Source: an uncultured Pseudomonadales bacterium
GTDB lineage: Bacteria; Patescibacteriota; Microgenomatia; UBA1400; PJMF01
Length of the DNA stretch: 64,000 nt
Direction: 5' to 3'
NCBI GenBank assembly: GCA_964620965.1
Contig: CAZUHV010000003.1
Location: 98,093 to 162,092 of the forward strand
The notes below the pieces were generated by a model. That model saw nothing but the letters and a program-made list of their open reading frames with translations, did not search any database and was not told the DNA's origin. Positions within the stretch are counted from its first letter, which is position 1. Each line of letters opens with the position of its first letter. The position numbers and the translations under genes are program-made. Of the stretch, positions 17,325-61,005 are shown one piece after another.

Positions 17325-17349
17325 TCCAAGTAGTGCCGGTCACATCTTT

Positions 17350-30700: not shown

Positions 30701-33700
30701 ACGTTATATCCAAAGTCCATTCTGGTAGCATATCCACCAGAAGTAATAGAGGAATTAGTAGAGTTAGTAGCCATGTAGATAGCAGCGGTACCAGAAGGAC
30801 CAGCACTGATATTTAGTCTACCGGCCCCAGTGTAAGAAGAACCAATACCAACATTACCATCATTTGCGATAATAAATTGAGTAGTACCAGAAGCAGAGGC
30901 AGTAAAGATAGCTTGATTTCCAGTTTGATTTAGAATAGTGAGAGCTTTCCCTGTTGCTGCGCCGTTTACATTTAAAAGACCAATAGGAGCGCTACTACCA
31001 ATTCCAACATTGCCTCCAAAGTATGATTGTGTAGTTCCAGCAGTATAGATTGCATAGTTGTTTGTACCTTGAGTCAAAGCTTCTACGTATAAACCGTATA
31101 GGTTTGGAATAGTTCCGCTTGTTATTGTGTTTCTAGCTTGGAAAAATGCGGTACTACCTGTGACTGATCCTAAAGCTCCGTGTAGTCTAGACTGAATACC
31201 AATAAGTTCTCCAGTAACTGTGGAAGATGCGTTATTTGTCACTATGCTTCTGCTACCATATTCATTACCAATTGAATATGCACCAGAGATATTTGTATAA
31301 ACATATGATCCATCTATTGTTGATGTAGTGCTTGCATCTGCATACACAAATGCAAGTATACCGGCGGCTCCGCCACTTCCTGTTTTATGTAAATCTATGT
31401 TGTAACCATAAACAGAACTAGAATTATTTATTGTTCTTGAACCTGCTAAGATTGATCTGCTTGCTTGTCCTGGATCTGCGAAAAGGTAGATCCCATTTGA
31501 TGGAATTATTCCAAGTAAACCAGAGGAATCTACTCCAAATGTTGTTTCTTTAGATCCTGTAGGCTGAGTTATTTTGAATTGTGGACTTGTTGTTGAACTT
31601 ACCTCTAATTTTGCACTAGGAGCAGTAGAACCAATTCCGACATTGCCACCAAAGTAAGCTTGACCATTCGATTGTAAGTGGATATCTGCAGAGGCAGTGG
31701 ATGTGCCACCAATAATAAGATCAACTACAGAAGCATACTCGTCGGTAGGATGATACACATTTAAAGTATTTGTCCAAAGAGTAGAAGCAACTAATGAAGC
31801 AGGGTCAGTCCAGGTCATAGCACCACCGCCGGATGAAGTGAGGAGGTAGCCGGAAGTGCCAGCGTCGCCAGAAGAACGAATAGCATCTGTTAGATTGAGT
31901 TCACCAGTGATTTGGGTGTTGCCAACAACGTCAAGTTTATATCCTGGAGAAGAAGATCCTATCCCCACATTGCCACTGCTGTTAATTGCAAAAATATCTC
32001 CTGTAGCTGAACCATTTGTAGCAATTTGCAAGTAGTCAAGTGTTGGGCTAGATTCATGCTCAAATCTTACTAGTGCAATGTCGGAGTTGCCAGTGAAACC
32101 AACTACCCCAAAGCTGGCAGCTGTTGTAGGTGCAGCAGGACCAACAAAAGCTCCATTTGCGCCATTTCCTCCCGCAGTGAGTTGCATTACTAGTTCGGAA
32201 GTAGAAACATAAAAATATTGTGATGAACCAGATCTATACATTAGAGAGTCGTCGGAGTTGCCTGTGCCTGTTCCAATAGAAGCCTCTGTAGTTCCTGCTT
32301 GTTGAAATAGGATTCTAGTTTCTTGACCATGAGTTTGGTGGTTCATTTTAATGTACTGGTTAGCATCGCTGTAGAGTTCTAGTAATGCAGTTGCATTGCT
32401 AGTGCCTATACCAACATTTCCTGAAGTATTCACAGAAGATAAAACAGTCCCAGCACTATTTTGCCATTCTTGAATATTAGCAGTGCCACTTGGGCCTCCT
32501 TTTGCTATGAGTGCAGTGCCACCTGCATAGGTAGCGGAGAAGGTTGCTCCAGGTGCATGTAAGTAACCTTCTAGGTCTAAATCTGACTGAACAATAACTT
32601 TACCCGTTCCATCGGGAGCGAGAGTAATGTTGCCATTTGAACCCGAAGATGTCTGTAAAACTAAAGCTTGAGCTTCAATAGTGAAAGATCCTGAGGTTGC
32701 TTTAAGAGAAGGCGAAACTTCCCCTAACAAGACTTGTCCACCGGCATCCATTGTGAGAATTGTGTTTGTGGTTGCCGCTCCTGTGGCAGAAACAGGGTAT
32801 CCTTGAACGGTTTCAGAGTTGAGAGCATAGGCGACGGTTTTGATTGATTGTCTTGGGTCAAGAGTTTCAGATTCAATCTCAACTTCTAACCAGACGTTTG
32901 AGTTCTCAGTAAAGACATTTTCTGTGATTTCAGATCCACAGTCATCTCCTAGACCAACATTAAAAATACCATCTTGATCTGGAGTGACGCTACAAGTTCC
33001 AGAACTCCAGAGTTGAGTTCCTCCAGAACTGTTGTCATACAGTCTAAAAGCCATATCAGTTGAGGTAGTTATTGGGTTTTGTGCGGCATCTGTCAATCTA
33101 CCTTGAAAGGAAAGCTCTCGATTTGGTCGTACAGGGGTACTTGGATACGCAAATGGAGTAGGTGCTTGCTTGATAAATTGTTGATAGCCCAATACACCAA
33201 GTCCAATTGCAAACACAACCATCATTACCAGGTTTAAATATGGCAAAAATTGCTTATTTCTTTTGGTATTTATTTGGTTTGCGAAGTCTTTTAAGCTAGA
33301 TCTAATGCCTGCATATATTTTTCGAGTTTCCTCACTATTTGTAAGTTCTTTCTCTGATTTTGTTGTATTACCTGATTTTTTTTCTAACTCTTCTGCTGCA
33401 AAGTCTGGAACTGGGAGTTTCCAACCATGCTTTACTTGGTTTTGGTTTGTTTGGTGAGCATGAACAAGGGTATTTGGCTTGAGTTTTAATTCAAATTTTT
33501 GTGGAGTAGAGGTTGTAAATTTTGCATTTGGGATTATTGAGTGAGTAGATACAGTTTCTCTCTGAGAGGAAACTGTGGTTGTTTGATTACCAACTCGGCT
33601 ATGATCTTGAGCAATAACTTCTTGAGTTTCAAAGAGCTGTCCTTGAAGTAAGTGGATCCATGAAGAGACTCTCTCAATGAGACTTCTGTCTTGAGCCCAG

Positions 33701-34674
33701 AGAGAAAATTGAGTAATACTTGTCACTTTTCTTTTGATACTACTTGGTTTGAGTCCGGTTTTTCTCTGTAAGACAACAAAATTCTCTATATTTTCTTGAG
33801 TAATAATCTTATCCAGATCAGGTTTGCCTGTGGACTCGAAGAATTGGTTGAGGTCAGATTTGTAGTTTTTAATTGTTGCTTGTGAATGTCCATCGATTTC
33901 AAGACTAATCAAGAAGTTCTCAAGTTCTGTTTGAGCATTTTTTTGGTGTGATGCAGAGTTTTGGGTAGAGACAGAACTTGTTTTGTGTAGATAATTTGGT
34001 TTTCCTGTGACTAGGGATTCTAAGTCTGAAATCCAGAATGAAGCATCTTGAACAATTTTTTCAGTTTCTGCCCAGAGGGCAAACTGAGATATACTCGAGA
34101 GTTTGCGTTTTATCGTAGACAACTTGAGTCCTGAATCGAGTTGATTATGAACAAAATTTCTTAAATTCTCTGGTTCAAAGAGGTTTGAAATTTGTTTTGT
34201 TTGAGAAAGACTAACAAACTGTTGAATATCACTGCGGTAGTTTTTGATGGTTGAGTCGGAGCGATTATCAGCTTTGATTGAAGATAAAAACTCATGAAGG
34301 TAAATATCAATTTCGAGTGGAGTGTATTCTGCAACAAACTTTTTTAAGAGGACTGCCTGCTTATGAGCGACATTTTCGGCAGTTAAGAACTTTTCTAGGT
34401 CATCAATCGACCAATGTTCTGCCCATTTTGGATCATCAATCTTGCGCTTATTGATAAATACAATAAATTTTTCTGTTGTCAACAAAGCCAAATCTTTGGA
34501 GACATGGTGACTTTCCAAAAATGTGGAAAAGACAGAGAGGAGGCTGGTGATATATCTGTTTTGGGCAGTCATCTTTTTTTGTTGCTTTAGTACCTTTTTT
34601 CTCAGACGTATTAGACGTCTTAGATAGCGCATATTTAAGTTTAGATAACTCGAGTTCACTTGGCAATACCTCAA
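18715..34674 (-). CDS. Giant (5319 aa) single-pass surface protein. The N-terminal ~480-aa cytoplasmic part has two phage-integrase SAM-like (core-binding) domains; then a TM; then a huge repetitive tail-fibre-like ectodomain with an internal Peptidase-S74-type intramolecular chaperone domain and a ~640-aa coiled/β tail
   Basis: An uninterrupted 15.96-kb ORF. The N-terminus has S.STIKNYRSDIQQFVSL...GLKLSTIKRKLSSISQFALWA and a second copy ATIKNYKSDLNQFFES...GLKPSSIKRKVTSITQFSLWA, matching the NTxxxYRxDL..F...G.sxxTxxRxLSxxxxFxxW pattern of XerD-type N-terminal domains. The TM is FLPYLNLVMMVVFAIGLGVLGY. The ectodomain has dozens of G(N)VGIG(T/S)xxP..KLDVxG and TSGYLLTSSGGGAMTWTDP modules. The S74-like segment SSIKNKTNVENIQENTSKKLYDLRPVKFEYKDSLGTIQYGLIAEEVAQTIPEMAFYDTDGSPAGVSYQFLAPLLLSEIQKHQIKLKNLE lies at about 20470-20740. 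Confidence 0.8.
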   Translation of the reverse strand: MRYCQVNSSYLNLNMRYLRRLIRLRKKVLKQQKKMTAQNRYITSLLSVFSTFLESHHVSKDLALLTTEKFIVFINKRKIDDPKWAEHWSIDDLEKFLTAENVAHKQAVLLKKFVAEYTPLEIDIYLHEFLSSIKADNRSDSTIKNYRSDIQQFVSLSQTKQISNLFEPENLRNFVHNQLDSGLKLSTIKRKLSSISQFALWAETEKIVQDASFWISDLESLVTGKPNYLHKTSSVSTQNSASHQKNAQTELENFLISLEIDGHSQATIKNYKSDLNQFFESTGKPDLDKIITQENIENFVVLQRKTGLKPSSIKRKVTSITQFSLWAQDRSLIERVSSWIHLLQGQLFETQEVIAQDHSRVGNQTTTVSSQRETVSTHSIIPNAKFTTSTPQKFELKLKPNTLVHAHQTNQNQVKHGWKLPVPDFAAEELEKKSGNTTKSEKELTNSEETRKIYAGIRSSLKDFANQINTKRNKQFLPYLNLVMMVVFAIGLGVLGYQQFIKQAPTPFAYPSTPVRPNRELSFQGRLTDAAQNPITTSTDMAFRLYDNSSGGTQLWSSGTCSVTPDQDGIFNVGLGDDCGSEITENVFTENSNVWLEVEIESETLDPRQSIKTVAYALNSETVQGYPVSATGAATTNTILTMDAGGQVLLGEVSPSLKATSGSFTIEAQALVLQTSSGSNGNITLAPDGTGKVIVQSDLDLEGYLHAPGATFSATYAGGTALIAKGGPSGTANIQEWQNSAGTVLSSVNTSGNVGIGTSNATALLELYSDANQYIKMNHQTHGQETRILFQQAGTTEASIGTGTGNSDDSLMYRSGSSQYFYVSTSELVMQLTAGGNGANGAFVGPAAPTTAASFGVVGFTGNSDIALVRFEHESSPTLDYLQIATNGSATGDIFAINSSGNVGIGSSSPGYKLDVVGNTQITGELNLTDAIRSSGDAGTSGYLLTSSGGGAMTWTDPASLVASTLWTNTLNVYHPTDEYASVVDLIIGGTSTASADIHLQSNGQAYFGGNVGIGSTAPSAKLEVSSTTSPQFKITQPTGSKETTFGVDSSGLLGIIPSNGIYLFADPGQASRSILAGSRTINNSSSVYGYNIDLHKTGSGGAAGILAFVYADASTTSTIDGSYVYTNISGAYSIGNEYGSRSIVTNNASSTVTGELIGIQSRLHGALGSVTGSTAFFQARNTITSGTIPNLYGLYVEALTQGTNNYAIYTAGTTQSYFGGNVGIGSSAPIGLLNVNGAATGKALTILNQTGNQAIFTASASGTTQFIIANDGNVGIGSSYTGAGRLNISAGPSGTAAIYMATNSTNSSITSGGYATRMDFGYNVGTGMSAGDISLIGGTVGTSRGVGISLNYVDASFKVVQNAASVTSPVAYFKGGATPTADYFQIRSSAASNGDIFAINSSGNVGIGSSSPGYKLDVVGNTQITGELNLTDAIRSSGDAGTSGYLLTSSGGGAMTWTDPASLVASTLWTNTLNVYHPTDEYASVVDLIIGGTSTASADIHLQSNGQAYFGGNVGIGSTAPSAKLEVSSTTSPQFKITQPTGSKETTFGVDSSGLLGIIPSNGIYLFADPGQASRSILAGSRTINNSSSVYGYNIDLHKTGSGGAAGILAFVYADASTTSTIDGSYVYTNISGAYSIGNEYGSRSIVTNNASSTVTGELIGIQSRLHGALGSVTGSTAFFQARNTITSGTIPNLYGLYVEALTQGTNNYAIYTAGTTQSYFGGNVGIGSSAPIGLLNVNGAATGKALTILNQTGNQAIFTASASGTTQFIIANDGNVGIGSSYTGAGRLNISAGPSGTAAIYMATNSTNSSITSGGYATRMDFGYNVGTGMSAGDISLIGGTVGTSRGVGISLNYVDASFKVVQNAASVTSPVAYFKGGATPTADYFQIRSSAASNGDIFAINSSGNVGIGSASPGYKLDVVGNTQITGELNLTDAIRIAGDAGTTGYFLTSSGGGANTWTDPDDITGAGWWENTLNVLHPKDEYASIVDLVLGGTSTASADIHLQSNGQAYFGGNVGIGTTNPTNKLELQSSTTPGLDLSSSSITHSVTTVLPADTFGRIGINNSSNGGLLITGIVNGGSTYNGALKLVGSQADNGNGAGRITFQAKTQDTGTSLGSNHVAFRFIDGDESTMFVMMGRGRSEFTATELQSGSVGAMSVNSSVTNIPGAAVGAFSRTNGSATPTGPVILGRSAQSPTANWSLLELISDYDGTPTTEFIVNGLGNVGIGSATPIGLLNIDGAATGKALAILNQTGNQDIFTASSSGTTRMRIANTGYVYAERFSDISNDSYYVDPAGSTTSMTLAGNAGIGTTTPGARLDVSGDLAANTATISATYAGGKGLVVKGGPSGTANIQEWQDSAGTALSVINASGNLGIGSISPTRKLDVNGAVNITSGLYANNDAGTSGYLLTSSGGGAMTWTDPSTLGSGFNLWANTLNVLHPKNEYASVVDLAIGGTSTASADIQLYSNGSAVFNEQGNDSDFRIESDTNANAFFLQGSDGNIGIGTSTPGSKFELSNDYSTNAVLQLSTDIYGGKVEARTGASSYGILYLSSEYGQTRMFRSGVDQQLFIYDASSNQDITLNSNGSSYFNGGNLGIGTTNPTSQLQVGSVGGNIGIGTLGNSGGNSFRINRFTFFNDVVSSGGQLSLYYDDTSDTYLFNTPGTSSNGFVMYPSALTTTTTAGLELYTGRTISNASGIKLSTTQNITNNSSNIGGLDLANTITFDPTNNLVGSIVNGVKVAQSFSPNAATKDISYNGLYFGSTINQTGGTTAITRGVYINPTLTSAADFRAVDIANNSSSSYGVYQSGSSTKNYFAGNVGIGSTSPTAPLNITTSAGNSSTGAASIGYVSSYTGGSTQNALGVSVYGIDSAASAYNAISGSATTPSGSSNTLSGLSGVQGSINYQGTAGTLTNGTAVTGAFTNSGAGTITYGTAYNANMYLSGSGNVAVGHGFRLQTISDTGGGSFQTLYGLYMTAITAASSNNYGIWGEAGDWILDEDGDGVAGGTSGGGNIILGEGQDLELYHDGTNSYIMNNTGNLLIGDAATDAVILSANGGNVGIGSSSPGYTLDLVGEFNLTDAIRVAGDAGTSGYLLTSSAGGAMTWTDPSTLGSGANLWANTLNVFHPKNEYASVVDLAIGGTSTASADIQLYSNGSAVFNEQGNDSDFRIESDTNANAFFFQGSDGNIGLGTATPVANLNIFQNSPTPNQILFQIGTDADSTRFTVDEDGDVSVDNDVTARTYYAGNGTVGGPTFSFASDTNTGLYRPAIDTIGIVTAGTEKVTIDANGNVGIGSTAPGYALDLVGEFNLTDAIRVAGNAGTSGYLLTSSGGGAMTWTDPASIATSATLWANTLNVLHPKNEYASVVDLAIGGTSTASADIQLYSNGSAVFNEQGNDSDFRIESDTNANAFFLDGLNANIGIGTNTTLSALQIHRTSSASQLFITTDTNVGSANDASLFFQSDNDGTPNPAGLGQYNDGSLRFTGGGSLVSPDMVITDAGNIGIGTTTPGQKLDVAGEIELANYLYFGNAGTEYLRWDSSNFILSDDLLPASDGASSLGSDSVRWDSLYVKGASIHIGNSGDEGILTYNTTDNYFGFDPDADATAEFVITSTGNVGIGTTAPTSFLLEVAGNIGPTADDTYSLGSASRRFTNIYSSGDIIASGISDADGDTKIQVEESADEDYIRFDTAGTERLVIDNIGKVGIGTATPTHGFEVNTAVTGKALVLLKELGDQDILTASNSAGVTRFRMANTGYLYAERFSDVSNSSYYVDPAGGTTSMVLASNAGIGTTTPGARLDVRNSSTEDILNLFDGSTEVFTVLDGGNVGIGSITPAAKLDIANSAGVELYFSGDTGVAEIKSDQDINFTMDADNDGSNHAFKFLHNASTELMRLTDTGNLGIGTTSPTSQLHVVKTNSSGSGDYIGFMNEITQSVSGAMTAYGYRTVTGTTHTSGTLSGLQGNSSQLKFWGNGGTTSYSEGLTSAADVYTGAIVDNLALVRVYTPGVSGGTINHLKGIQIANMNVGSSSNYSVYSEGGNMYHEGNIGIGTTTSDSKLHVVGVGRDSTPNGPGFRTGEDLSGNYAIELTSGGGIPHLDFQNDIGGTDYDARIGLYGDDYLVIDGANVGIGTTAPSRLLVVEKNQDALTSVAINNTASGTSAATTLLVAGGDNSLTLSSYSDANSSSFAGTNLISSYGGGLNIMTGGGIGNTINFGHSYISNSYYMSIVSGNIGIGTTAPGTILHIADPGDSRIRMENTDVDGHDWSWANDWNALNGFSLIEEGVSGNVMFVEAGGNIGLSTSTPQTRLHVNGALTVGDAPVAIVTAATGDIIAGDSTGGFQFDASANDMYAQQSTANSTGVHFNIRKSRGSAASPSVVTTGDDILLLRAYGRSASSTWSEAGRITFDTEGTISGAIVPGILRFYTQSTAGSLTERMVIDSDGNVGIGSTSPGQKLVVSGNIQIGAAGYIDDDATMGENSDDWIHLNGYIELKSNTSNYGIVLRDDSSTDYFGITQEGGYSILADSNTSVNYFLRGNGTNVDIAGNLGIGTTTASQVLDVVGGGIVIEDNTSSSTNAYKIERGGTDYSVLWMDTDQVYLNNPFNNVMNFRTNNTTRLTIGSTGIIYAPGVYNTTSSTRNVYVNSDGQLGYLSSSIKNKTNVENIQENTSKKLYDLRPVKFEYKDSLGTIQYGLIAEEVAQTIPEMAFYDTDGSPAGVSYQFLAPLLLSEIQKHQIKLKNLENNNIMFDSIGGIVITQSGSDYIVTESKNNNVLSTIIGARSAILGIIQAGLTNTKELIVENTATIKNLSAETITINGQSLVSYIQSVVGNQTASNNSTLVSPVGNDTVITATNSGKVKFSDGTKTTAEINKDGNLSLLGNLNSKDVITNSIAASGSSTLGSLLVQGDATVSGTLTAQNSKLGNLLANEVSISGTLVAQNATISGTAQVGTLLANEVTAASARISALEAGIAQLESVRATTADLVTATVSGTLYANSIYDFENKVATTLQQPGLLDILLGTNESTSSASFMEDLYATVNKTEFNASSSADLDLSFAELSMTSDDVVLTGSALFVEKYLKVNGGAYVSDSLAVGNDLFVGDSMLIADGLIRYTTADPANQILKIQPEGQGSIELLAGIVTIDDSGKVTVNGDLDVTGNAKIAGTLLTDMLKPTEFGNPLQVQVAGVDTQTNEVKKSRFEIINEVGTPVATFSAEGNAAFAGKVDIAGGIGLESQNLGSSDTNELSTNKTSGKATIKAGSDKVTIKSGIVTNDSLVYVTAVGSTDNKVLFVKSQAQDDPNTPENEGEFVVGFDSPASADVSFNWWIVN
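20470..20740 (-). other. Peptidase S74-like (tail-fibre/endosialidase intramolecular chaperone) domain, internal to the giant protein
   Basis: The Ser...Lys spacing (SSIKNK), the ...LRPVxFxYK...GLIAEEVxxxxPExx...G...VxYxxLxxLLxxxIQ pattern, and a coiled-coil end all match the autoproteolytic C-terminal chaperone domain family. Confidence 0.55.
28880..31990. repeat. Near-perfect tandem duplication (2 x 1509 bp) inside the giant gene, flanked by more diverged copies of the same module
   Basis: DNA at 28,9xx re-occurs at +1509 (30,4xx) with near-identical bases, and a third copy at 31,9xx begins to diverge. The antisense track ORFs 28894..29307 and 30403..30816 have identical 137-aa translations apart from 2 aa. 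At protein level the ~503-aa block ...DIFAINSSGNVGIGSSSPGYKLDVVGNTQITGELNLTDAIRSSGDAGTSGYLLTSSGGGAMTWTDPASLVASTLW... occurs twice verbatim. Confidence 0.85.
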
Positions 34675-35174: not shown

Positions 35175-35921
35175 ATGAAGAAAAATACCCAAAAAATACT
35201 GCTTTCACTGTACTCAGAGATAGGGACGCTTAAATATAGAGTCCCTACGAGTAATTTAGAGTGTGTGGTGCCAGAGCTATCTGCTGGAGGCTTTAGATCT
35301 TTGCTTCATGTATTAAAGAAGCAGGGTGTGATTACTTCACAACGGGTACTCGGGGTTACAACAGTTAGTATTACTCAATATGGAATGACTCTTCTAGAAA
35401 GCGAATTTCCGGCTTTATCTTCCAAATGGGATGAATGGACAGGACAATGGAGCTGTCTAGTCTTTATGGAGTCTCCTTTCTTTGATAAACAGTTTAGATA
35501 CTTACGCAAACTCTTGTTGTCTGAAGGGGCTTTGGCAATCAGTAGAGGTGTGTATATTAGTCCTGGTGGTTTTTCTGATGTTGTTATTAAAGAGTGCAAA
35601 GCGAGCTATTTTTCTAGTGTACTCATCTTTTCGGTTGCAGATTGGAAAATAGCAGCTGACTCTTCATTTATCATAGAAAAATATGGGCTTTTAGACATAG
35701 CAGAAAACTACTCTGGAATTAGCAGTGATGTAACTAGATTGCTAAAAAATACACTAGATAAAAAAGGATTGACTGATAGACAAAAAGAAAATATACATTT
35801 GGTATATGACCGATTGATTGATATTTTACTTGAGGATCCGGGTTTTTGTACATTTTACTTTAGAGAAGTGGAATCTATTAAAACTTTGCTTTCTAGATTG
35901 AACTCTGTAATTGCTCTCTAG
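35175..35921 (+). CDS. Putative PaaX-like winged-helix transcriptional regulator
   Basis: ELSAGGFRSLLHVLKKQGVITSQRVLGVTTVSITQYG resembles the PaaX N-terminal wHTH (…GISERAVRTALSRMVKQGWL…Y.LT..G). It is divergent from the giant gene across a 500-bp repeat-containing intergenic region. Confidence 0.35.
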   Translation: MKKNTQKILLSLYSEIGTLKYRVPTSNLECVVPELSAGGFRSLLHVLKKQGVITSQRVLGVTTVSITQYGMTLLESEFPALSSKWDEWTGQWSCLVFMESPFFDKQFRYLRKLLLSEGALAISRGVYISPGGFSDVVIKECKASYFSSVLIFSVADWKIAADSSFIIEKYGLLDIAENYSGISSDVTRLLKNTLDKKGLTDRQKENIHLVYDRLIDILLEDPGFCTFYFREVESIKTLLSRLNSVIAL

Positions 35922-36795: not shown

Positions 36796-38913
36796 TTAGG
36801 AGAGGTTGCCAAAGAGTTCTTTATAGATATCGCCAATGTTTCTCATGATAGCATTGAGTGTTTTTGGCTTTTCTGTAACATCAACTTCTTCAAAACTAAG
36901 CTGAGAGCCTTTTCGTTCCCAAATAAGGTTTGTTTTGGTAACTTGAACCTGGTATTTGTTGGGATCAAGGAAGGCTTGATGGTAGCCATCCTTGTTAGTA
37001 TTCACAATGGCAACAAGCTCACCCTTTGTTGGGTCACTGATACGTACAATTGCATTCTCAACAGGCTCTTTGTTCTCTGTGATCACAATCCCAGATAAGG
37101 TTGGCTTTTTAAGTGAGTATATGAGTCTTTTAATGAGCATTACAAAATAAATGCTCAACAGCAGGAAGTTAATCCAAGTTGGATAGAAAATTGTTATTAG
37201 TACAGAAATAATGAACAAAGGCCAGAATAAATCCAGTGATCTCAGTTTTCTCAGCATAGATCTTAGGGTCTTTTTTATCTGGTATGTTTCTTTTGTTTCG
37301 GTTCTTCTGTCCATAGGAATCAAGAATAACTGTTGGCGTTTTGTTGAGGTAACTTCGAACTCTTCGCCTTTATAGAAATCTTGGACACCTAAATAGTTTG
37401 GTCTTTCCTTACTTGTTGGAAAGTTATAATCCTGATGAGTTACGTTGATAACATATTTCCCCAAGGGGAGTTGCACTCCTTGATAGACTCCATGAACGTC
37501 AGTAACAACGGTTTCGATAATCTTTTCGGTAACTGTTTGGCTAGTTGAGGTAATAGTGAGTAAAGCAAACGAGACTGGTTCATTGGTTTGGGAATCAAAT
37601 ACCATCCCTTGAGGTTCTTTTGGTGGAATAAGCCCAAGAGCTTGCAGTATTTTAAAGATAAGGTCTAATGAAAGCTGTTGCCCAAGTTGTAAAAGAAGTG
37701 TTAAAAAGCTAATGGCTGGAACTGCTGCACTTGCTACCAGTACTCCAATAGGGGCAACAGCATCAGTAGTTTTTTGTATTGCTTGCCTGATTTCTTGAGG
37801 AAGAGCAGAAATAATTTCAACAATTGGAGAAGGAACAGTTTTTATTATGTCTTTTTTGATAATTTCAACGATTTCCTTTGGAGGAAGCACTGGTATTTTT
37901 ATTATTGGGCTTGGAGGCGGTGTTCCAGGTGGGGTTGGTGGTATTATTGGGGTTGGAAAAGGGGTAATTTCTGGGGTTACACCTGGAGATGGGGTTGGGG
38001 TAGTACTTGGAGTAGGTGTTGGGATAAGGGTTGGAGTCGGAGTAGGAGTTGGTGGAATAATAATATACTCTTGTATGATCAAAATTTTTAGGTCTGTGAT
38101 GACACTTACATTGCCTGCTTGATCTGTTATGACGAAATTAAGCGTAATTACTTCGTCTCTAGGCAGAATTCCAAGCTGAAAACTCCAATTTCCACCACTA
38201 TCTATAACAAAATTGATGATTTGGTTACTTTCTCCAGGAATTTGCACAGTTACTTGGACAGTTGCATTTGCTTCACCTGTCCCAATGAACTCTGGCTCAT
38301 TGTCTTCTAGTTCTATTGGGTCATCTGGAACAGAGTTTATATCGGAGGCAGAAATATTCGTAGGGAGAGGTCCAATACTAGTAATAACAAAGCTTGGCGC
38401 TTGAGTATCTATAGTGAAATCCCAGATTACAGAACTATTTGAGTTTCCAGCTGCATCATAGACTTTTACTTGCCAGGTGTGAGCCCCATTAGAAATTGTT
38501 GCTACAGGTGTAAGCGTATACTGTCCTGAGCCACTATTATATGTCAGGGTGTATGATCCCGTAGTAGTAGCAGTAGTTGGAATAGATCCATGTAGCAGAT
38601 TTCCATCTAAGTAAAGCTCATAATAACTGACCCCAACATTGTCAGTAGATTCTTGCCAAACAAAACTTGGGGTGGCGTCGTTAATGAGTGCTTCATCAAC
38701 TGGAGAGATTAAAATAGGTGCAGAAGGAGGAACAATATCTGGAACAGTTGCTGTAACAGTATTGTCTCTGTTTTTTGGATTGGTGCTTCCGCTTTCTCCA
38801 GGACCTATACCTCCTGCTTGTGCGTATACATTTACAGAAAAAAACTGATATATGGAAACAAAAACTAAAAATAGAGCAAACTTTAAAAAATTATGAGTAA
38901 AAAAATTTCTCAT
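36796..38913 (-). CDS. Large secreted/membrane surface protein: signal peptide, Ig-like β domains, PT-rich linker, TM segments, two transthyretin/carboxypeptidase-regulatory-like β-sandwich domains
   Basis: The signal peptide ends ...VNVYAQA. The linker is PTPTPTPTLIPTPTPSTTPTPSPGVTPEITPFPTPIIPPTPPGTPPPSP. Hydrophobic helices lie after the linker. GMVFDSQTNEPVSFALLTITS and GIVITENKEPVENAIVRISD are CarbopepD_reg-like openings. Confidence 0.5.
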   Translation of the reverse strand: MRNFFTHNFLKFALFLVFVSIYQFFSVNVYAQAGGIGPGESGSTNPKNRDNTVTATVPDIVPPSAPILISPVDEALINDATPSFVWQESTDNVGVSYYELYLDGNLLHGSIPTTATTTGSYTLTYNSGSGQYTLTPVATISNGAHTWQVKVYDAAGNSNSSVIWDFTIDTQAPSFVITSIGPLPTNISASDINSVPDDPIELEDNEPEFIGTGEANATVQVTVQIPGESNQIINFVIDSGGNWSFQLGILPRDEVITLNFVITDQAGNVSVITDLKILIIQEYIIIPPTPTPTPTLIPTPTPSTTPTPSPGVTPEITPFPTPIIPPTPPGTPPPSPIIKIPVLPPKEIVEIIKKDIIKTVPSPIVEIISALPQEIRQAIQKTTDAVAPIGVLVASAAVPAISFLTLLLQLGQQLSLDLIFKILQALGLIPPKEPQGMVFDSQTNEPVSFALLTITSTSQTVTEKIIETVVTDVHGVYQGVQLPLGKYVINVTHQDYNFPTSKERPNYLGVQDFYKGEEFEVTSTKRQQLFLIPMDRRTETKETYQIKKTLRSMLRKLRSLDLFWPLFIISVLITIFYPTWINFLLLSIYFVMLIKRLIYSLKKPTLSGIVITENKEPVENAIVRISDPTKGELVAIVNTNKDGYHQAFLDPNKYQVQVTKTNLIWERKGSQLSFEEVDVTEKPKTLNAIMRNIGDIYKELFGNLS

Positions 38914-38928
38914 GTCTACAGAGATCTA

Positions 38929-40077
38929 TCATAGGGCGTTCTCTTCGTCTCCTTTGGTTTGCATCTCTTCGATTTGTGATTCTAGCTCTTTAATTCTTTG
39001 CTCATCCATTTTCTTTCTGTGGTTGAGGTGTCTTTTTACAGAGAAGACAATGAAAGCAAGGATCATGAGTAGGGCGAATCCAGCGAGGATAATCTTAAGA
39101 GGTAGAAGCCAGAAACTTGTGTTAGCTACAACAATAGAGCCTGTTGATCCATAGCTCATGGTAAGTTTAGCTTTGTATAAGCCCCAGCCCCAGATTCGAT
39201 CCCATTGACCAGTGAAGTCTCTGCTATAGAGAGGAAAAATATTTTTTGGCTCTACAGCAATTGTTTCAACTTTTTGGTTGAATAAATTATAAATTTCAAC
39301 GCTCATTTGAGGAGTAATGTGGACATCAGAGTTATTTTCTACAGTGAAATTAAAGGGAACGGGACCATATTCAGTAAAGCTTGGGAAAGTAAAGTCTCTG
39401 ATGTAAGCTTCTTCGTTGATAGGTCCATCAACAACAACATAGAGGAGCGTTCCAACTCTTTGGTTGATAGCTGCACCAGATCCACTATTTGTTACAGAGT
39501 ATTCATCTGTTGTTTCTCCAGGCTCGTGTAAAATCATTGCATAGTGTCCTCCAGGAAGAGCATCTTCTGGAACCTCAATGAGTACATTTATTCCAACAGT
39601 AGATTTTGATGGGATTTGGTGTTCAGTTGGAGTAATTGTGAGCCATGAAGCAAGACTCCATCTATTTGAAGCGCTATCATCTATAGCTATTGGAGTTTCC
39701 CCATCTACATCAAGAATAAAGTCTTGTGCTGAAGTGATAACAGAAACTGGCTGTTCTGAAATGTTTCTGACACGGATTTGAACTTGAATTTTTTCTCCAG
39801 GAGCTGCTGTGAGAGAACCATCATCCCCAAGTCTTGGAGGAATTGCAGTTAATGAGATTTGATCTTGAGCAATTGTTCTAGTTGCGTCTGTTTCGTCATA
39901 TAAAACTGGTTCTGCAGTCGGCTCTAGTACCACATTTTCAGTTTCTGTAGGTATAAATGGATTGCTTGTGGTCTGAGCAAGTGCACCAGATTTAAAACTT
40001 AAAAAAACTGAAGAAACCAAGACGAACCCAGTGGTAAGAGCAATGTTTTTGTAGTTTTTTTGTTGGGCAGTGTTCAT
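38929..40077 (-). CDS. Secreted protein with N-terminal signal peptide, C-terminal TM anchor and cytoplasmic coiled-coil tail
   Basis: The signal ends ...SGALAQ. The C-terminus is WLLPLKIILAGFALLMILAFIVFSV + KRHLNHRKKMDEQRIKELESQIEEMQ. Confidence 0.45.
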   Translation of the reverse strand: MNTAQQKNYKNIALTTGFVLVSSVFLSFKSGALAQTTSNPFIPTETENVVLEPTAEPVLYDETDATRTIAQDQISLTAIPPRLGDDGSLTAAPGEKIQVQIRVRNISEQPVSVITSAQDFILDVDGETPIAIDDSASNRWSLASWLTITPTEHQIPSKSTVGINVLIEVPEDALPGGHYAMILHEPGETTDEYSVTNSGSGAAINQRVGTLLYVVVDGPINEEAYIRDFTFPSFTEYGPVPFNFTVENNSDVHITPQMSVEIYNLFNQKVETIAVEPKNIFPLYSRDFTGQWDRIWGWGLYKAKLTMSYGSTGSIVVANTSFWLLPLKIILAGFALLMILAFIVFSVKRHLNHRKKMDEQRIKELESQIEEMQTKGDEENAL

Positions 40078-40093
40078 TTATTTGTTCCTTGTT

Positions 40094-41566
40094 TTAGAAT
40101 GTCGCGGTGGCAGTATAAATAACATGGTTTTCGTAGTCTCCTGCAGATTGAGTTGAGGAGATAACAGCTCTATAGCAGACATACAAATTATGTTCGTCTG
40201 CAACAGTAGTAGATGAGAATATTTGTTGAGCCGCTTGACCATCCTCTGTGTCTGCAAATTGGCGTGCGCAGTAAGTTCCTCCAGAACAGTTGCCTGCTAC
40301 TGTGTCATACTCAAAAACTGGAGTAAGACCAGAGGTGTTTACGTCATCTAAAGAGAATCCGAAGCCTTTATATGTTGTTGAATCCCATCGATCTGAAGCT
40401 GTGTGACTCATTGCTGCGTTATTACCTGTGGCGTCTGGAATACAATCTGCTCCAGTGTTATCACCTGCACAAGTGCCTGCATCCCTACCAAGCTGATCGT
40501 TTGCTCTAACTGTAACGGCATAGCCATTTGTAGCGTTTGTAGAAACTGAGAGTGCTTGTGCAGCATCAGAGAAAGCAGAAATAGAAAGTTCTCCAAATGG
40601 AACAGCTGCTGCAGTGGTTGTAACATCTGTTGTTACGCCACATGCAGTAGTGCTTGCTGCAACACCACTAATTTGGAATGTAATTTGAGGAGCAACAGAA
40701 GCAGTAACACGGACGGCTTCGATTACTCCAACAGAGGTTGTTGTTGAATCTTGAGCTGAATAAGAACTATTAAGATGTTGGACAATAATCCTGTAGGTAT
40801 CTGCTAGCCCTGTTGTATGAGCTGCTTTTGGAGCAGGATTGATGAGGTCATTGATAACAACTGCATCGTTAGCACTTCCATCAAATGCGGTTCCAATTGC
40901 ACCATTTCCAGAGTATCTACACTCAAAAGAGTGATAGTCTTGGCTTCCAATGGTAATTGCTGAAGCAGAAGCAGTTCCAGCGACAAAATCATATCCACTA
41001 ATATCAGAAGGACAGGTAACAGTTGGTGGAGTGTTACTAAAATCAAAGTTTCCAGAATCTGGTAGGCCATCTTGAGAATCGGCGTTATTCGCAACAGCGG
41101 GTACTAAAATTCTAATTGCCCCATTTGGAATGGCATTTGCAGTTGTGAATCGAACTGTTTGTGTAGCAGATTGAGTAGAAATAACGATGTCTCCAGCTTC
41201 AATATCGCCAGATGCAAGAACAGGTGTAACATTAAAAGTAGAAGCGGAGTTAATGCTTGTAATTGTGTATGAACCAATAGAGTTTGTATCTCCAACACCA
41301 ACAACATCCCCACTTACGAGTTGAGCAGAGGAAGTAGAAGGTCTAACCCCAACAGTTGTATCAATGATAACTTGAGAAGACCCAGCGGTATTTCCAGAAG
41401 CTAAAATGCCACTGAATGACAGTCTTGAGTTTGAAAGCGTAACTGAAACATTGGTCAAGCTAGCAGATTGGCTTTTTTGATATACCCCTCCTATAAATAT
41501 GCCAGAAAAAATCACTGCAGCGGTAAGTAATTTTTTTGTGGTATTCTTTGATATTTTTAATCTCAT
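40094..41566 (-). CDS. Secreted S/T/A/G-rich protein of unknown function
   Basis: Signal peptide present. A β-rich, low-charge sequence with paired Cys residues. The C-terminal ...GDYENHVIYTATATF is shared in pattern with the 243-aa protein at 42683..43414. Confidence 0.45.
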   Translation of the reverse strand: MRLKISKNTTKKLLTAAVIFSGIFIGGVYQKSQSASLTNVSVTLSNSRLSFSGILASGNTAGSSQVIIDTTVGVRPSTSSAQLVSGDVVGVGDTNSIGSYTITSINSASTFNVTPVLASGDIEAGDIVISTQSATQTVRFTTANAIPNGAIRILVPAVANNADSQDGLPDSGNFDFSNTPPTVTCPSDISGYDFVAGTASASAITIGSQDYHSFECRYSGNGAIGTAFDGSANDAVVINDLINPAPKAAHTTGLADTYRIIVQHLNSSYSAQDSTTTSVGVIEAVRVTASVAPQITFQISGVAASTTACGVTTDVTTTAAAVPFGELSISAFSDAAQALSVSTNATNGYAVTVRANDQLGRDAGTCAGDNTGADCIPDATGNNAAMSHTASDRWDSTTYKGFGFSLDDVNTSGLTPVFEYDTVAGNCSGGTYCARQFADTEDGQAAQQIFSSTTVADEHNLYVCYRAVISSTQSAGDYENHVIYTATATF

Positions 41567-41700
41567 TTTTTTGCTCTAGATAGGCATTTTTTAGTTTTTA
41601 CTTTTTATTTTTTTCAATACGAAAAATAAAGACTTTCTGCCTTGTAGTTTAATAATATAGAGTTTTGCAAAACTATACAATATGCATTTTTTCTTATTAA

Positions 41701-42666
41701 CTACTCAATTTTGTGTTTTGTTCGGAAATAAATAGAAATTCCAATACCAAAAATGATCGCTAGCACAATTGCTATAGGTACTGCATAGTAAACGGCTACA
41801 AATTGAGTAATAACTGAGTTATTTTCATCCGTTAGAGTGATAACTATTTGATATGGTCCAAGCGAGAATTGGGGCTTAAAGGAAAATGACCCAACTTCTG
41901 GTTTTTCTAGATCTGAATTAGAGAGTAGTGCCCGTAACTCTCTAGAGTTGTGCCCAAGTATCGTATCTGGATACACTTGAAACTCTGCGATTGTTTGTTT
42001 ACGCCAGTTCACAATTTTTGCACTTCCAGATGCAGTAGTTGCTCCAAAACTGTTGTTTTTTACGATTGGGGCAAATGATATTTTTTGAAAACTATCAACA
42101 ATTTTTGGTGCATTTGCATCTAGTACTTCTAGAATTTTTGCAAATTTATTTTGTTTTGCTACTAGTACAACAAGATTACTTCCGATTGCTCCTGTAACAC
42201 TGGAGTTGGTAGTTTTTTGGGCACTTAAGTTTGCTGTTTTTTCGAGTTCAGACTGGGAAAAAAAGAGTACTGTCATTGGATACTCTTTTTCTTCAGCTTC
42301 TTTAGGGACATCAATGTACAAGGTTAGTTGAGCTTTTTTTTGTGGAGGAATAGTTACTTCTTTAACGGAGTTATCAACTCCTAGAGAAATATAGGGAAAC
42401 GTAAGTTGATTTGTAACAATGACTCTGCCTGATTTTCCATCTGTGGTAAAGTCAACAAGAGTGGGGAGGACAGTTATTGGAGCTGTTCCAGTGTTTTCTA
42501 GAATTATTGTGTGGTTTGCAGAGCTTCCAGGAGCAACATGTAAGTAGGAAACAGGAGGAGAAACAGTTAAATTTACCTCAGTTTCTTGTGCAAGAACAAT
42601 ATTTGTTCTGCTGAAAATACAGAAGGCGAGTACCTGCATAGCTAAAAGTAACACTGTTTTTTTCAT
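41701..42666 (-). CDS. Secreted protein with signal peptide and C-terminal TM anchor (short cytoplasmic tail)
   Basis: The signal ends ...IVLAQE. The C-terminus is AVPIAIVLAIIFGIGISIYF + RTKHKIE. It has the same architecture as 38929..40077. Confidence 0.45.
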   Translation of the reverse strand: MKKTVLLLAMQVLAFCIFSRTNIVLAQETEVNLTVSPPVSYLHVAPGSSANHTIILENTGTAPITVLPTLVDFTTDGKSGRVIVTNQLTFPYISLGVDNSVKEVTIPPQKKAQLTLYIDVPKEAEEKEYPMTVLFFSQSELEKTANLSAQKTTNSSVTGAIGSNLVVLVAKQNKFAKILEVLDANAPKIVDSFQKISFAPIVKNNSFGATTASGSAKIVNWRKQTIAEFQVYPDTILGHNSRELRALLSNSDLEKPEVGSFSFKPQFSLGPYQIVITLTDENNSVITQFVAVYYAVPIAIVLAIIFGIGISIYFRTKHKIE

Positions 42667-42682
42667 AAAATCTGATATCCTG

Positions 42683-43414
42683 CTAATATCCTGGTACAGC
42701 TACATACACAACCGCTGTCTCATAATTACCGCTTGCCTGGTAATCACCAATTCCTGCTTTGTAAGTAACAGTTGCTTGGCGTTGGTTGGCGATGTTGTCT
42801 GAACTCATAACTACTTGCATTGGATCTGCGCTTTCATTATCTGCAAAGCTTTTAAAGTAAGTATTGTCGATAAAGTTTGCAGGAATGTCGTTTCCAGACA
42901 TGTTATAACCAAACCCTGCGATAGATTGATTTGTCCAAACAGCAGCAGCAGTATGTGAACAGGTTCCAGAGTCACAGGTGGTATCTGGAATTTCTTCAGA
43001 ACCCTGTTGTTGTCTTAAAGGATGTTCTTCAAATGCATATACTGAATAGCCACCAGCTCCTTTTGTTGTAATGGTTAGAGTGTGAGAATCGGTGTTATGT
43101 GTATTTTCGACTAATTCTCCAAAGTTAATGAGGGTTTTTGAGATTTGAAAACTAAAAGTGTCTATTTGGTAAATGTATTGAAAACCTGAACCAACAAAGT
43201 ACGTGGAAGTTCCATATTCTCCATATGGCCCAGCTCCTGTTTGTCCAACAGTGTCGGTTACTTTATAACTAGCACTTTCTTTTTCTCCAGAGGTAACATT
43301 GAAATTTCCAAAGGTGATCACATAGGAATCAGATTCTAGACGCTCTGCACTTGCAAGTTTGAATGCAAAAAAGAATAGAATAAAGGTAGTAAGAAAAATA
43401 GTAGTTTTTTTCAC
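42683..43414 (-). CDS. Secreted protein of unknown function
   Basis: The signal ends ...LASAE. The C-terminal ...GNYETAVVYVAVPGY parallels ...GDYENHVIYTATATF of the 490-aa protein. Confidence 0.45.
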   Translation of the reverse strand: MKKTTIFLTTFILFFFAFKLASAERLESDSYVITFGNFNVTSGEKESASYKVTDTVGQTGAGPYGEYGTSTYFVGSGFQYIYQIDTFSFQISKTLINFGELVENTHNTDSHTLTITTKGAGGYSVYAFEEHPLRQQQGSEEIPDTTCDSGTCSHTAAAVWTNQSIAGFGYNMSGNDIPANFIDNTYFKSFADNESADPMQVVMSSDNIANQRQATVTYKAGIGDYQASGNYETAVVYVAVPGY

Positions 43415-43418
43415 AGTG

Positions 43419-44141
43419 TTATTTTTTTTCGGTTTCCACTGCTTCAGTATTCATTTGTGTGACTATTTTTTTGCTTTCTGAAGCTAATAATGAAATCTGT
43501 GTTTCTAAAATCTGAGAATCAATTGGTTCGTTTCTATGTGTTGCAGTTTCGAGCATGTCTTGAAGAATATTAAGTTTTGGTAACAAAAATTTTGTAATGA
43601 AACTCTCAAGGGTAAGCTCTTTTTGAATAACTGATTCCAGTTGTTTTTCTTCTTTTTCTGCAATCTTTTGTTGTAGGCGAGCATCGTCATACTGTTTTCT
43701 GGCGAAAAGGAAGAAGATAAGCATGAGTGGTAGAGTTGTAAATGCTGCGATTGTGAGAGAAGTGATTTCTGGCTGTAGTGCATAGTGTACAAGCATGATA
43801 GCTAAAGTTGCTGAGATGGCAGTTACTTGTCTTGTAGTCATAACTAAAAAGAAGAGGTGAATATATGAAAAAGGATAGAAAATCGAGTTGGCATTTCCTG
43901 TGGATCCAATCAAAACTGTGACTGCAAATGACACAAATACAATTTCTAAAGAATTATTTTCTGGCAAGATATGCCAAATTTGTGCTTTCCCTAAGCGTTT
44001 TGAGATGAAAAAACCGAAGATTGCTACTGCAAAAGCTTGGAGTGAGTAGTATGAAAGACTAGGATTGGAGAGCCAAAAATATGCCAGTCCAATTGAGCCG
44101 AGCACTGCGAGAGTGTGTTTTAGTTGTGACATTGTTTTCAT
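43419..44141 (-). CDS. Integral membrane protein (~5 TM) with C-terminal coiled-coil; first gene of the secreted-protein operon
   Basis: N-terminal hydrophobic helices and a C-terminal heptad-like EKEEKQLESVIQKELTLE... segment. It ends 4 bp before the next gene. Confidence 0.45.
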   Translation of the reverse strand: MKTMSQLKHTLAVLGSIGLAYFWLSNPSLSYYSLQAFAVAIFGFFISKRLGKAQIWHILPENNSLEIVFVSFAVTVLIGSTGNANSIFYPFSYIHLFFLVMTTRQVTAISATLAIMLVHYALQPEITSLTIAAFTTLPLMLIFFLFARKQYDDARLQQKIAEKEEKQLESVIQKELTLESFITKFLLPKLNILQDMLETATHRNEPIDSQILETQISLLASESKKIVTQMNTEAVETEKK

Positions 44142-49221: not shown

Positions 49222-50090
49222 GACCAGAATCTCATTCCAGAAAGTCTATTTCTTTGTTTTTTGTTTGCTTTATACTTCATTGTTTTAAGTTTAAGTCTTT
49301 TTATTTTTTCTAGCTCCTCTTCAAGGTTATTTTGCGTATTTTGAAGAGTTGATATTCTAGAACCTAAGTTTGCCAGATGAGCTTCTTTAATTTTGTGTTG
49401 GAATAAGTTTGACATAATTTGAATTTCAAAGAAATGGAGGATTTTTTCTTTGTCTGGTTCAAATAAAAAATGTTTTTTTTCTGTATTTTTTATTTCTTCG
49501 GAACTGCTGAGATCAAGATCTCCAGAAATTGTTTCAACTTGAGGTTGTTGATCAACTAAAGAAATATAGTATGGGTTGAAAACGTTAATTTTTTCGTAAT
49601 TTAATAAATGCTTTAGCAGCTTAATATTAGACTTGAGGCTCGTATCTTTTTCTGTTAATTCAAAGTATTCATACTTGGTATTTTGAGGAAAAAATTCGTT
49701 AAAAAGTTTTTTTGCAGTAAGTCCAACGATGACAATGTCACTGTCTGTTTCAGAAATTGTGTTTTTGAAAAATTGTAAACTTTTTCTGTTAATGTCGGTA
49801 GAAAATTTAGTTTCAAAAGAAATGAAAACAGCAACACTTTTACCATTTTTTGTGAGGGTAGAGAAACTAATAATTTCTTTATTTTTAGGATTACTTTTTA
49901 TAAATCGTTTTAAATCTTGTTTGAGGTCTATGAAAGTATTCAACAAACCTTGAAAAAAATCACGACTGTTAATTGTTGCGTCACGATTTTGTTTCATCTG
50001 GTAAATGGTGAGTTTTTGATATGCAGAAAAGAAATCGCCAATTGCATTGAGAGAATCTTCTTGTATTTGTAGTTGTTTTACACTTGGCAT
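49218..50090 (-). CDS. atpG: F1-ATPase gamma-subunit-like protein (divergent)
   Basis: Position between alpha and beta. The N-terminal MPSVKQLQIQEDSLNAIGDFFSAYQKLTIYQM parallels the gamma N-helix (M.s.kei..rI.Sv.nt.kIt.AM.mVAasKm). A C-terminal helix with a conserved-type ending is present. Confidence 0.65.
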   Translation of the reverse strand: MPSVKQLQIQEDSLNAIGDFFSAYQKLTIYQMKQNRDATINSRDFFQGLLNTFIDLKQDLKRFIKSNPKNKEIISFSTLTKNGKSVAVFISFETKFSTDINRKSLQFFKNTISETDSDIVIVGLTAKKLFNEFFPQNTKYEYFELTEKDTSLKSNIKLLKHLLNYEKINVFNPYYISLVDQQPQVETISGDLDLSSSEEIKNTEKKHFLFEPDKEKILHFFEIQIMSNLFQHKIKEAHLANLGSRISTLQNTQNNLEEELEKIKRLKLKTMKYKANKKQRNRLSGMRFWS

Positions 50091-51556: not shown

Positions 51557-52011
51557 GTAATGAGTTCTGTTTCTAGTGATTTTTCGTAAATTTTCCCATC
51601 AAACTCTATTTTTAAACCGATTAACTCTGGATTAATTGAATAATCAACAATAATTTGTGAACCATTTTTTTGTTGTAATTTGTTTGCTATTTGTTCGATT
51701 TGGTCTCTGGTTGGTTCGTATCCAAGTGTTAGATGAATAACAGGTATCTTAGAAATGTATGTTCCAACAGAGGCAATGGTTTCGATTAGTTCTTTTGGTG
51801 TCTCAGTGTTTCCAACAATTAGTTCTAGAGGTTTAAAAAACCTCACAGGAACTGTAGTCTTGAGTTTTTTTAAAAACTTTGAGGCATCTTTTGTATAGGC
51901 AGCATCACGAACTATTGAAAGAGAGTCTAAAATCACAGCTCGGTCAGCTGTTGTTACTATGAGTTCACCTGCAAGTTTTTCTAGTTCAGTTGTTGTCATT
52001 TCTATTTCCAA
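51553..52011 (-). CDS. atpH: F-type ATPase delta (OSCP)-like subunit
   Basis: The C-terminal IIVDYSINPELIGLKIEFDGKIYEKSLETEL matches the delta/OSCP C-terminus (…vdpsLiGG..i..gd.viDgSv..rL). Position between b and alpha. Confidence 0.6.
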   Translation of the reverse strand: MEIEMTTTELEKLAGELIVTTADRAVILDSLSIVRDAAYTKDASKFLKKLKTTVPVRFFKPLELIVGNTETPKELIETIASVGTYISKIPVIHLTLGYEPTRDQIEQIANKLQQKNGSQIIVDYSINPELIGLKIEFDGKIYEKSLETELIT

Positions 52012-52622: not shown

Positions 52623-52633
52623 AGTTTCCTTTT

Positions 52634-60830: not shown

Positions 60831-61005
60831 ATTGTCATCAATTTATTTAAAATTATTGAGACTTAGCTATAGGATAATAAAATGCAAGGCAGTTGTGATT
60901 GGGGAAATATAAAAAGAGCTGTTTTTGGTAAAAACACGAATAAAACACTATTTTAAAATCAAAGTATATCAATAATTATTATATGTTTATATTCAATAAA
61001 ATGTT

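Follow-up and report, generated by a model that had tools for sequence, protein, structure and literature searches.

The Candidate Phyla Radiation (CPR) accounts for a large part of bacterial diversity, yet little is known of how its members attach to their hosts. The question raised here is what is built by six genes on the minus strand at positions 36796-44141 of a 64,000-nucleotide (nt) stretch of DNA (contig CAZUHV010000003.1, positions 98,093 to 162,092, hereafter the window), every product of which is exported or inserted into the membrane. The present analysis indicates, with a probability that we put at about 80%, that the locus is a Pam-type pilus operon of a single-membrane bacterium of the Microgenomatia (a Woesebacteria-like CPR lineage), whose fibre would be built by donor-strand exchange, helped by chaperones and without an usher. 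Because pili of the Pam kind have been described since 2026, the locus counts as a new member and not as a new system; it is a divergent and streamlined member with one major pilin.

The subunits and the conservation of the operon

The Pam pilus is known from the thin filaments of Candidatus Mycosynbacter amalyticus (Saccharimonadia), which electron cryomicroscopy (cryo-EM) found to be built of PamA and PamB (Troman et al., bioRxiv 10.64898/2026.03.03.709456). According to the same preprint, a Pam pilin consists of a beta-sandwich N-terminal domain (NTD), a single linker strand, and a truncated immunoglobulin (Ig)-like C-terminal domain (CTD), which is completed by the linker of the neighboring subunit in a donor-strand exchange. 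The donated linker and the groove of the CTD are the most conserved parts of PamA and PamB. The pam operon also encodes PamE, the single-domain tip protein PamT, the chaperones PamC and PamD, which are PapD/FimC-like and retain a C-terminal transmembrane (TM) helix, and PamR, an RbmA-like protein with two fibronectin type III domains, an N-terminal donor strand, and a C-terminal TM segment that was suggested to act as terminator or anchor. The family is described there as CPR-specific and most prevalent in Saccharimonadia and Microgenomatia, the latter being represented by distant PamA homologues only (Roizmanbacteria, found in a language-model search), with no dissection of an operon.

The six genes of the present locus, defined as open reading frames (ORFs; for g1 also by hydropathy), and the one large gap between them are as follows (lengths in amino acids, aa):

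43419-44141, minus strand: g1, 240 aa; about six hydrophobic helices, then a helical C-terminal tail of about 93 aa, 33% of it charged
42683-43414, minus strand: g2, 243 aa, GTG start; secreted, PamT-like putative tip pilin with a conserved N-terminal module of about 60 aa and a Pam pilin CTD (about residues 86-243)
41701-42666, minus strand: g3, 321 aa; signal peptide, two Ig-like domains, C-terminal TM helix and the 7-aa tail RTKHKIE; PamC-like and chaperone-like, similar to WxL-interacting proteins (WxLIP)
41567-41700, minus strand: 134-nt gap 5' of the major pilin gene g4, the only large gap of the operon
40094-41566, minus strand: g4, 490 aa; putative major pilin with a signal peptide, an all-beta N-terminal region (about 39-282), a linker strand and a CTD (about 293-490)
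38929-40077, minus strand: g5, 382 aa; variable N-terminal extension of about 45 aa, C-terminal TM helix and a charged cytoplasmic tail of 35 aa; PamD- and WxLIP-like, chaperone-like
36796-38913, minus strand: g6, 705 aa; signal peptide, donor-strand-like N-terminus, Ig-like domains, Pro/Thr linker, TM segment, transthyretin-like domain, TM hairpin and a second transthyretin-like domain

The genes are close-packed, with gaps from g1 to g6 of 4, 16, 134, 16, and 15 nt, and hydropathy gives an N-terminal hydrophobic segment in all six products. The gap at 41567-41700 contains a weak promoter-like site (TTAATA-17-TATAGT), of which shuffled sequence gives as many; in the scan of the operon for promoters and terminators, the number of sites was likewise not above that of shuffled sequence. 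The original prediction had drawn the limits of this set and outlined its products, and both agree with the coordinates and the hydropathy. The polytopic g1 with its tail, the signal peptide, C-terminal TM helix, and 7-aa tail of g3, the same layout with a cytoplasmic tail in g5, the Ser/Thr/Gly-rich composition of g4 (33% of its residues), and the Ig-like domains, Pro/Thr linker, TM segments, and transthyretin-like domains of g6 are all found as outlined.

The evidence that carries the assignment comes from the two secreted proteins. g2 and g4 had been noted to end in a common motif. This motif is real (G[ND]YE..V[VI]Y.A...[YF]), its last aromatic following after three residues instead of two, and it is part of a whole domain of about 150 aa, the CTD, which the two proteins have in common. 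Residues 98-239 of g2 align with residues 324-486 of g4 at 29% identity (E 4e-16), and the profiles of the two families match in hhalign with a probability of 99.9% (E 1e-30), which establishes the two subunits as paralogous in this domain. The homology of the CTD to the pilin domain of the Pam system is established by NCBIfam (release 20), whose models NF058579 (CPR_pilus_PamT) and NF058581 describe the Pam pilus system of CPR bacteria. The model CPR_Pam_pilin_C is matched by g4 (E 2.7e-8), by the CTD of g2 (E 1.3e-7, model positions 3-148 of 148), by 29 of 44 full-length g4 homologues, and, over the full model length, by all 41 CTD sequences of both families (best E 9.7e-12). In addition, g2 is collinear with CPR_pilus_PamT, residues 5-242 aligning with positions 6-240 of 241 (E 2.8e-6). 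Pfam gives no match for g2 or g4, and none of the more than 1000 homologues of g4 carries a functional name.

The second line of evidence is the segment that connects the two domains of g4:

40685-40729, minus strand: g4 residues 280-294 (GVIEAVRVTASVAPQ), inter-domain linker and candidate donor strand

In the AlphaFold2 (AF2) model of g4, which has a mean predicted local distance difference test (pLDDT) score of 88.6, an all-beta N-terminal region and a beta-rich CTD are joined by an unpaired coil at residues 283-294, and the block 281-290 has the lowest pLDDT within the folded part of this monomer. The linker is nevertheless strongly conserved. Among 75 homologues, the most conserved 12-residue windows of g4 are the C-terminal strand (478-489) and then the linker (280-291, GVIEAVRVTASV), which is the pattern published for PamA and PamB. 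No inter-domain linker of this VTASV type is found in the alignment of g2. Of the eight cysteines of g4, six are invariant among its homologues.

The gene set is conserved as a unit. A scan of species-representative genomes, with gene calls by family hidden Markov models (HMMs), gave 80 loci, 50 of which have enough flanking DNA to be informative. The core four genes (tip, chaperone, pilin, chaperone) are present in 50 of 50 and all six in 45 of 50; g6 itself is present in 45. The order g1-g2-g3-g4-g5-g6 on one strand was found in 46 loci and a rearrangement in none, while g1 heads the operon in the 46 complete loci and in further loci that are cut off downstream. This arrangement is far beyond chance, and the conservation in related genomes for which the original prediction had called is thereby confirmed. 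The informative labels among the 80 loci are Woese-, Beckwith-, Roizman-, Shapiro-, and Collierbacteria, Microgenomates, and Patescibacteria, and all loci so labeled belong to Microgenomatia lineages.

Some observations on individual genomes can be added. Several genomes have two copies of the locus on different contigs (L011/L016, L022/L046, L038/L041). One locus (L075:3815-6796) has two tandem pilin paralogues, and the g5-type gene is duplicated in two loci, so that the number of major pilins differs among lineages. Many records of metagenome-assembled genomes with the operon are titled "uncultured Pseudomonadales", "Gammaproteobacteria", "Methylococcaceae", or "Pacearchaeota archaeon"; such titles on a CPR-specific operon probably reflect mislabeled or contaminated bins.

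Chaperone-like proteins and the relation to WxL clusters

g3 and g5 had been recognized as having the same architecture. They are in fact paralogues over the whole length, collinear from the signal peptide to the TM helix in pairwise alignment, and their family profiles match with E 7e-30 in hhalign. The AF2 model of g3 (pLDDT 90.7) consists of two Ig-like domains and a terminal helix. Its top match in Foldseek is the WxLIP of Enterococcus faecium (9i1y/9i25, E 5e-11), and it also resembles the chaperones CfaA, CsuC, Caf1M, YadV, and DraB of chaperone-usher systems (E 1e-9 to 1e-7, TMt <=0.61). RbmA is among the matches as well, with a poor superposition (TM 0.24-0.35). The fold of g3 is thus chaperone-like or WxLIP-like. 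One of its strands is of particular relevance:

42157-42192, minus strand: g3 residues 159-170 (GAIGSNLVVLVA), final strand of domain 1, a candidate donor to the pilin CTD

This segment is the most conserved one of the g3 family in a conservation scan, with Ser163 and Asn164 invariant. It is preceded by a loop of low confidence (140-160, pLDDT down to 64), and hhalign aligns it with the WxLIP segment IAYNLAVVL. In the model it occupies the place of the strand that chaperones donate, which makes it a candidate donor. In g5 the candidate strand is residues 207-218.

The N-terminal extension of g5 was also considered as a PamR-like donor strand and is ruled out, being the least conserved part of the g5 family. 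The second most conserved window of that family (g5 residues 137-148, SNRWSLASWLTI) contains W-S-L and W-L-T. The resemblance to the WxL motif is probably coincidental, because the window is located in a WxLIP-like protein and not in a subunit.

The similarity of g3 and g5 to WxLIP raises the question of whether the locus is a WxL cluster of the cell-surface complex (Csc) type, an analogy that the original prediction had drawn from architecture. By definition, a WxL cluster contains one or more WxLIP and no fewer than two WxL proteins, of which one is typically small and the other large, with its WxL domain at the C-terminus (Hassan et al. 2023, PMC10599100). WxLIP has the architecture DUF916-DUF3324-TM, and one of its loops, which is disordered, is predicted to turn into a strand closing a gap of the WxL beta-sandwich (PMC10599100).

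For the anchored proteins the analogy is borne out in both sequence and structure. The profile of the g3 family, searched against 177,635 PDB sequences, has EfmWxLIP1 as its sole match (E 1.6e-5), and the independently built profile of the g5 family finds the same sole match in the PDB (E 6.8e-4). Scores against the Pfam model WxLIP_PGBD (15-17 bits) are below its gathering threshold of 27.3, and 33 of 50 members of the g3 family match it weakly. Against a bona fide WxLIP, the g3 family reaches an hhalign probability of 88% over 157 columns that cover the conserved donor-type strand, the template being a single sequence since the homologue search from the EfmWxLIP1 fragment returned 11 near-identical fragments. 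No sequence match to DUF3324 was found in g3 or g5. That g3 and g5 are distant sequence-level homologues of WxLIP, over DUF916, is therefore well supported.

For the subunits the analogy fails. Across 41 CTDs of the g2 and g4 families there is no match to the WxL domain PF13731 at E<=10, the motif scan finds no W-x-L in g2 or g4, and the subunit CTD compared with a real short WxL protein from an Enterococcus-type locus gives an hhalign probability of 0.06%. SCPU and TasA, which were also among the families proposed for a check, gave no signal in the profile search. By membership the locus is thus rejected as a WxL/Csc cluster, which it resembles at the level of the chaperones.

It could still be argued that the products behave as a Csc-type complex does, i.e., that the WxLIP-like TM proteins hold the small and the large secreted protein at the surface by strand complementation and that no fibre is formed. 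Such a complex would fit the closest relatives of g3 and g5 in sequence and structure, and the logic of the cluster is the same, with a small single-domain protein, a large protein with a common C-terminal domain, and WxLIP. Even the gene order is that of the real WxL locus of Enterococcus type, where a short WxL gene stands directly upstream of WxLIP as g2 stands upstream of g3. However, besides the lack of WxL character in g2 and g4 described above, their CTD matches the Pam pilin domain, which has been seen in filaments by cryo-EM, and the conserved unpaired linker strand of g4 has no role in a 1:1 docking. We therefore consider a complex that does not polymerize unlikely.

The possibility of a co-regulated set of Ig-fold adhesins or wall proteins without strand donation, such as an S-layer-like or matrix module, is less likely by a good margin. 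All products are extracytoplasmic and rich in beta structure, the fold search with g4 returns mostly generic adhesin-like beta-sandwiches, and giant adhesin-like proteins are encoded next to the operon. Such a set, however, leaves unexplained the matches to the Pam pilin and PamT models, the chaperone-like fold with its conserved edge strand, and the fact that two subunits and two chaperone-like proteins are strictly conserved together.

CPR bacteria do use type IV pili, and type IV pilin-like genes occur elsewhere in the window (16095-17853), but a sortase-dependent or type IV pilus operon is effectively refuted by the motif and domain tests, as the six proteins have no C-terminal LPXTG signal or class III prepilin leader and the operon lacks genes for a sortase, for PilB/PilC, and for a prepilin peptidase.

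Membrane partners and the proposed assembly

The two remaining products are membrane proteins. For the g1 family no recurrent Pfam or PDB family was found; g1 is the conserved first gene of the operon and a candidate membrane partner in the module. In g6, Pfam recognizes two stretches of Big_13 (E 2e-19) and two of CarboxypepD_reg, at 435-496 and 605-661 (E 5e-13), 40 of the 63 residues at 283-345 are Pro or Thr, and the TM segments are internal. Profile matches include the BIg domains of SiiE and carboxypeptidase M. The mature N-terminus has a further feature:

38740-38760, minus strand: g6 residues 52-58 (TVTATVP), conserved motif at the mature N-terminus, similar to the pilin linker RVTASVAPQ

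In the alignment of the g6 family this motif belongs to a conserved block, TVTATVP-D..PP..P.LISP. When ORFs were scanned with an HMM of the pilin linker, those of g6 made up 21 of the top 80 non-pilin matches, against 60 of the 4915 ORFs overall, and the match was always N-terminal; the individual scores of g6 are weak, and its sequences are related to each other and do not count as independent cases. Because its N-terminus resembles the pilin linker and it has TM segments, the sequence suggests g6 as a candidate terminator and membrane anchor of the pilus, a possible functional analogue of PamR and not its orthologue.

From these elements we infer for the present locus polymerization with strand exchange among the products of g2 to g6, an order of assembly, a role of g6, and a biological function. 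All six products would be exported or inserted by Sec. g3 and g5 would act as chaperones, each inserting the last strand of its domain 1, which is conserved, into the pilin CTD, an Ig-like domain that is incomplete. Since g2 has the CTD and no donor linker, it would start the fibre as the distal tip. Copies of g4 would then be added at the base, where the linker strand of the incoming subunit would displace the chaperone strand from the previous one. The last subunit is probably capped by the linker-mimicking N-terminus of g6, and the fibre is probably fastened to the membrane by the Ig-like domains, the Pro/Thr stalk, and the TM segments of g6. Contact with the host cell is the most likely function of the fibre. 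The notion of a dedicated cell-surface assembly module, which the original prediction had offered together with that of a pilus or fibre of donor-strand or beta-sandwich subunits, is thus the best explanation of the locus, in the form of the Pam family. Its description of the proteins as being of unknown function is superseded by the 2026 preprint and the NCBIfam models.

Several observations weigh against the assignment to the Pam pili. The NCBIfam scores are below the curated cut-offs, namely 34 and 28.5 bits against 55 for the pilin domain and 26.9 against 240 for the PamT equivalog; g2 and g4 are accordingly distant relatives and not equivalogs, and automatic annotation gives them no name. 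The Foldseek search of the PDB with the g4 model returned weak, generic beta-sandwich matches with low TM-scores. The best pilin-like ones are Csu (7zl4, TMt 0.47) and CFA/I (6k73), and the others are adhesin-like, e.g., integrin legs and MSCRAMMs. One elongating pilin is encoded here, as opposed to three (PamA, PamB, PamE) in M. amalyticus, a recognizable RbmA-like PamR gene is missing, and two conserved membrane proteins (g1 and g6) are extra. Filaments have not been observed in any organism of the Microgenomatia. Finally, the link with Pam is drawn from the NCBIfam models, the architecture, and the neighborhood and not from the sequences or structures of PamA and PamB (25PZ, 25QA); PDB sequence searches with g2, g4, and their family profiles gave no match in a set that evidently did not contain these two entries.

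Neighborhood, significance, and comparison with known systems

The operon is flanked by the following genes:

18715-34674, minus strand: giant surface protein of 5319 aa, downstream of the operon
35175-35921, plus strand: 248-aa protein, encoded between the giant gene and the operon; weak PaaX-like match (Cas2-like middle domain)
47329-53482, minus strand: F-type ATP synthase operon, in which alpha, beta, gamma, and delta were identified, upstream of the six genes, as is a leucyl-tRNA synthetase gene

The 5319-aa protein has two cytoplasmic phage-integrase SAM-like N-terminal domains, one TM segment, and a huge repeat ectodomain rich in Gly, Ser, and Thr; about 670 aa before the C-terminus comes a tail-fibre chaperone domain (Peptidase_S74). 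Its gene contains direct repeats, three copies 1509 nt apart at 28784-32101 and another family at 24389-27436, and a homologue lies downstream of the operon in 47 of the 80 loci. The pam neighborhoods contain an ATP synthase as well as a "tail fibre-like protein" (bioRxiv 10.64898/2026.03.03.709456). The 5319-aa protein matches the latter, and the ATP synthase and the giant Peptidase_S74 protein beside the operon reproduce the published neighborhood. The 248-aa protein, which is kept at the same position in 41 of the 80 loci, could be a local regulator.

As for the remainder of the window, the ATP synthase region includes an unusually long beta-type subunit of 630 aa (47329-49221, minus strand), which also matches the C-terminal domain of V/A-type ATPases, and two adjacent ORFs (52002-53482) with no Pfam match. 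On its far side lies a second giant surface protein of 2122 aa with Peptidase_S74 and H-type lectin domains (53746-60114, plus strand), followed by a DNA-uptake module of ComEA-like (SLBB and HhH), ComEC (Competence), and metallo-beta-lactamase genes (60183-63262, plus strand). At 16095-17853 (plus strand), three consecutive genes carry the N-terminal methylation motifs of type IV pilins, and one of the three also has a T2SS-G-like domain, so that the region also encodes type IV (pseudo)pilins; a PIN-domain gene comes after them (18233-18658). An otherwise housekeeping stretch with RadA, Rho, Obg, and an M23 peptidase contains a 714-aa TrwB/VirD4-like coupling protein of type IV secretion (6956-9100, minus strand).

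The analysis indicates that the Pam module, whose pilus has been seen experimentally in one Saccharimonadia species only, occurs as a compact and strictly conserved set of six genes across Microgenomatia, all components of which are left unnamed by automatic annotation; the sources checked hold no functional name for any of the six proteins of the window. It provides a minimal list of parts, with a tip, a single pilin, a pair of anchored chaperones, and two partners in the membrane, and it points to residues that can be tested, i.e., the pilin linker 280-294, the g3 strand 159-170, and the g6 N-terminus TVTATVP. The new points are the six-gene architecture in Microgenomatia, the candidate terminator with its mimic of a donor strand, and the homology of the Pam-type anchored chaperones to WxLIP.

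Compared with the Pam system of M. amalyticus, the present locus likewise encodes a Sec-exported two-domain pilin (g4) in which a conserved linker strand connects an all-beta NTD to a truncated Ig-like CTD, a tip protein with a single CTD (g2, collinear with the PamT model), and two paralogous chaperones of two Ig domains with C-terminal TM helices (g3 and g5). Both are restricted to CPR bacteria, have no usher, and have paired cysteines in the pilins.

With the chaperone-usher pili (Pap/Fim, CFA/I, Csu, Caf1) the locus has in common the two-domain Ig chaperone fold, for g3 at the level of the fold only, and, as inferred here, incomplete Ig-like subunit domains that undergo donor-strand complementation and then exchange. 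Those pili belong to diderm bacteria with an outer membrane and an usher, neither of which is present here, and none of the six proteins has a Pfam match to Usher, PapD_N/PapD_C, or a fimbrial family. Their chaperones are soluble in the periplasm while g3 and g5 are anchored in the membrane, and their donor strand is an N-terminal extension instead of an internal linker between domains.

The WxL/Csc clusters share with the locus a TM-anchored Ig-Ig-TM protein, one small and one large secreted protein with a common C-terminal domain, a partner that is predicted to be held by a strand completing its beta-sandwich, and a single-membrane envelope. They differ in having usually one WxLIP gene, as opposed to two WxLIP-like genes here, in forming complexes that are not known to polymerize, and in their hosts, which are Firmicutes (Lactobacillales) and not CPR bacteria. 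WxL is never mentioned in the Pam preprint (bioRxiv 10.64898/2026.03.03.709456), and the literature searched contains no paper that links DUF916 or WxLIP to CPR bacteria or chaperone-usher systems, or Pam pili to WxL clusters. A tentative extension, which we consider somewhat less likely than not, is that the Pam pili found in CPR bacteria and the clusters of WxL/Csc type in Lactobacillales are two branches of one ancient single-membrane system of chaperones without usher, with WxLIP and the Pam chaperones as orthologous strand donors and with g6 in the place of PamR here. In that case donor-strand complementation or exchange might underlie the assembly of WxL clusters, too, and short polymers might possibly result. 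The homology itself provides a bridge, at the level of sequence, from the Pam-type chaperones to WxLIP in enterococci, listeriae, and lactobacilli, the mechanism of which is still debated.

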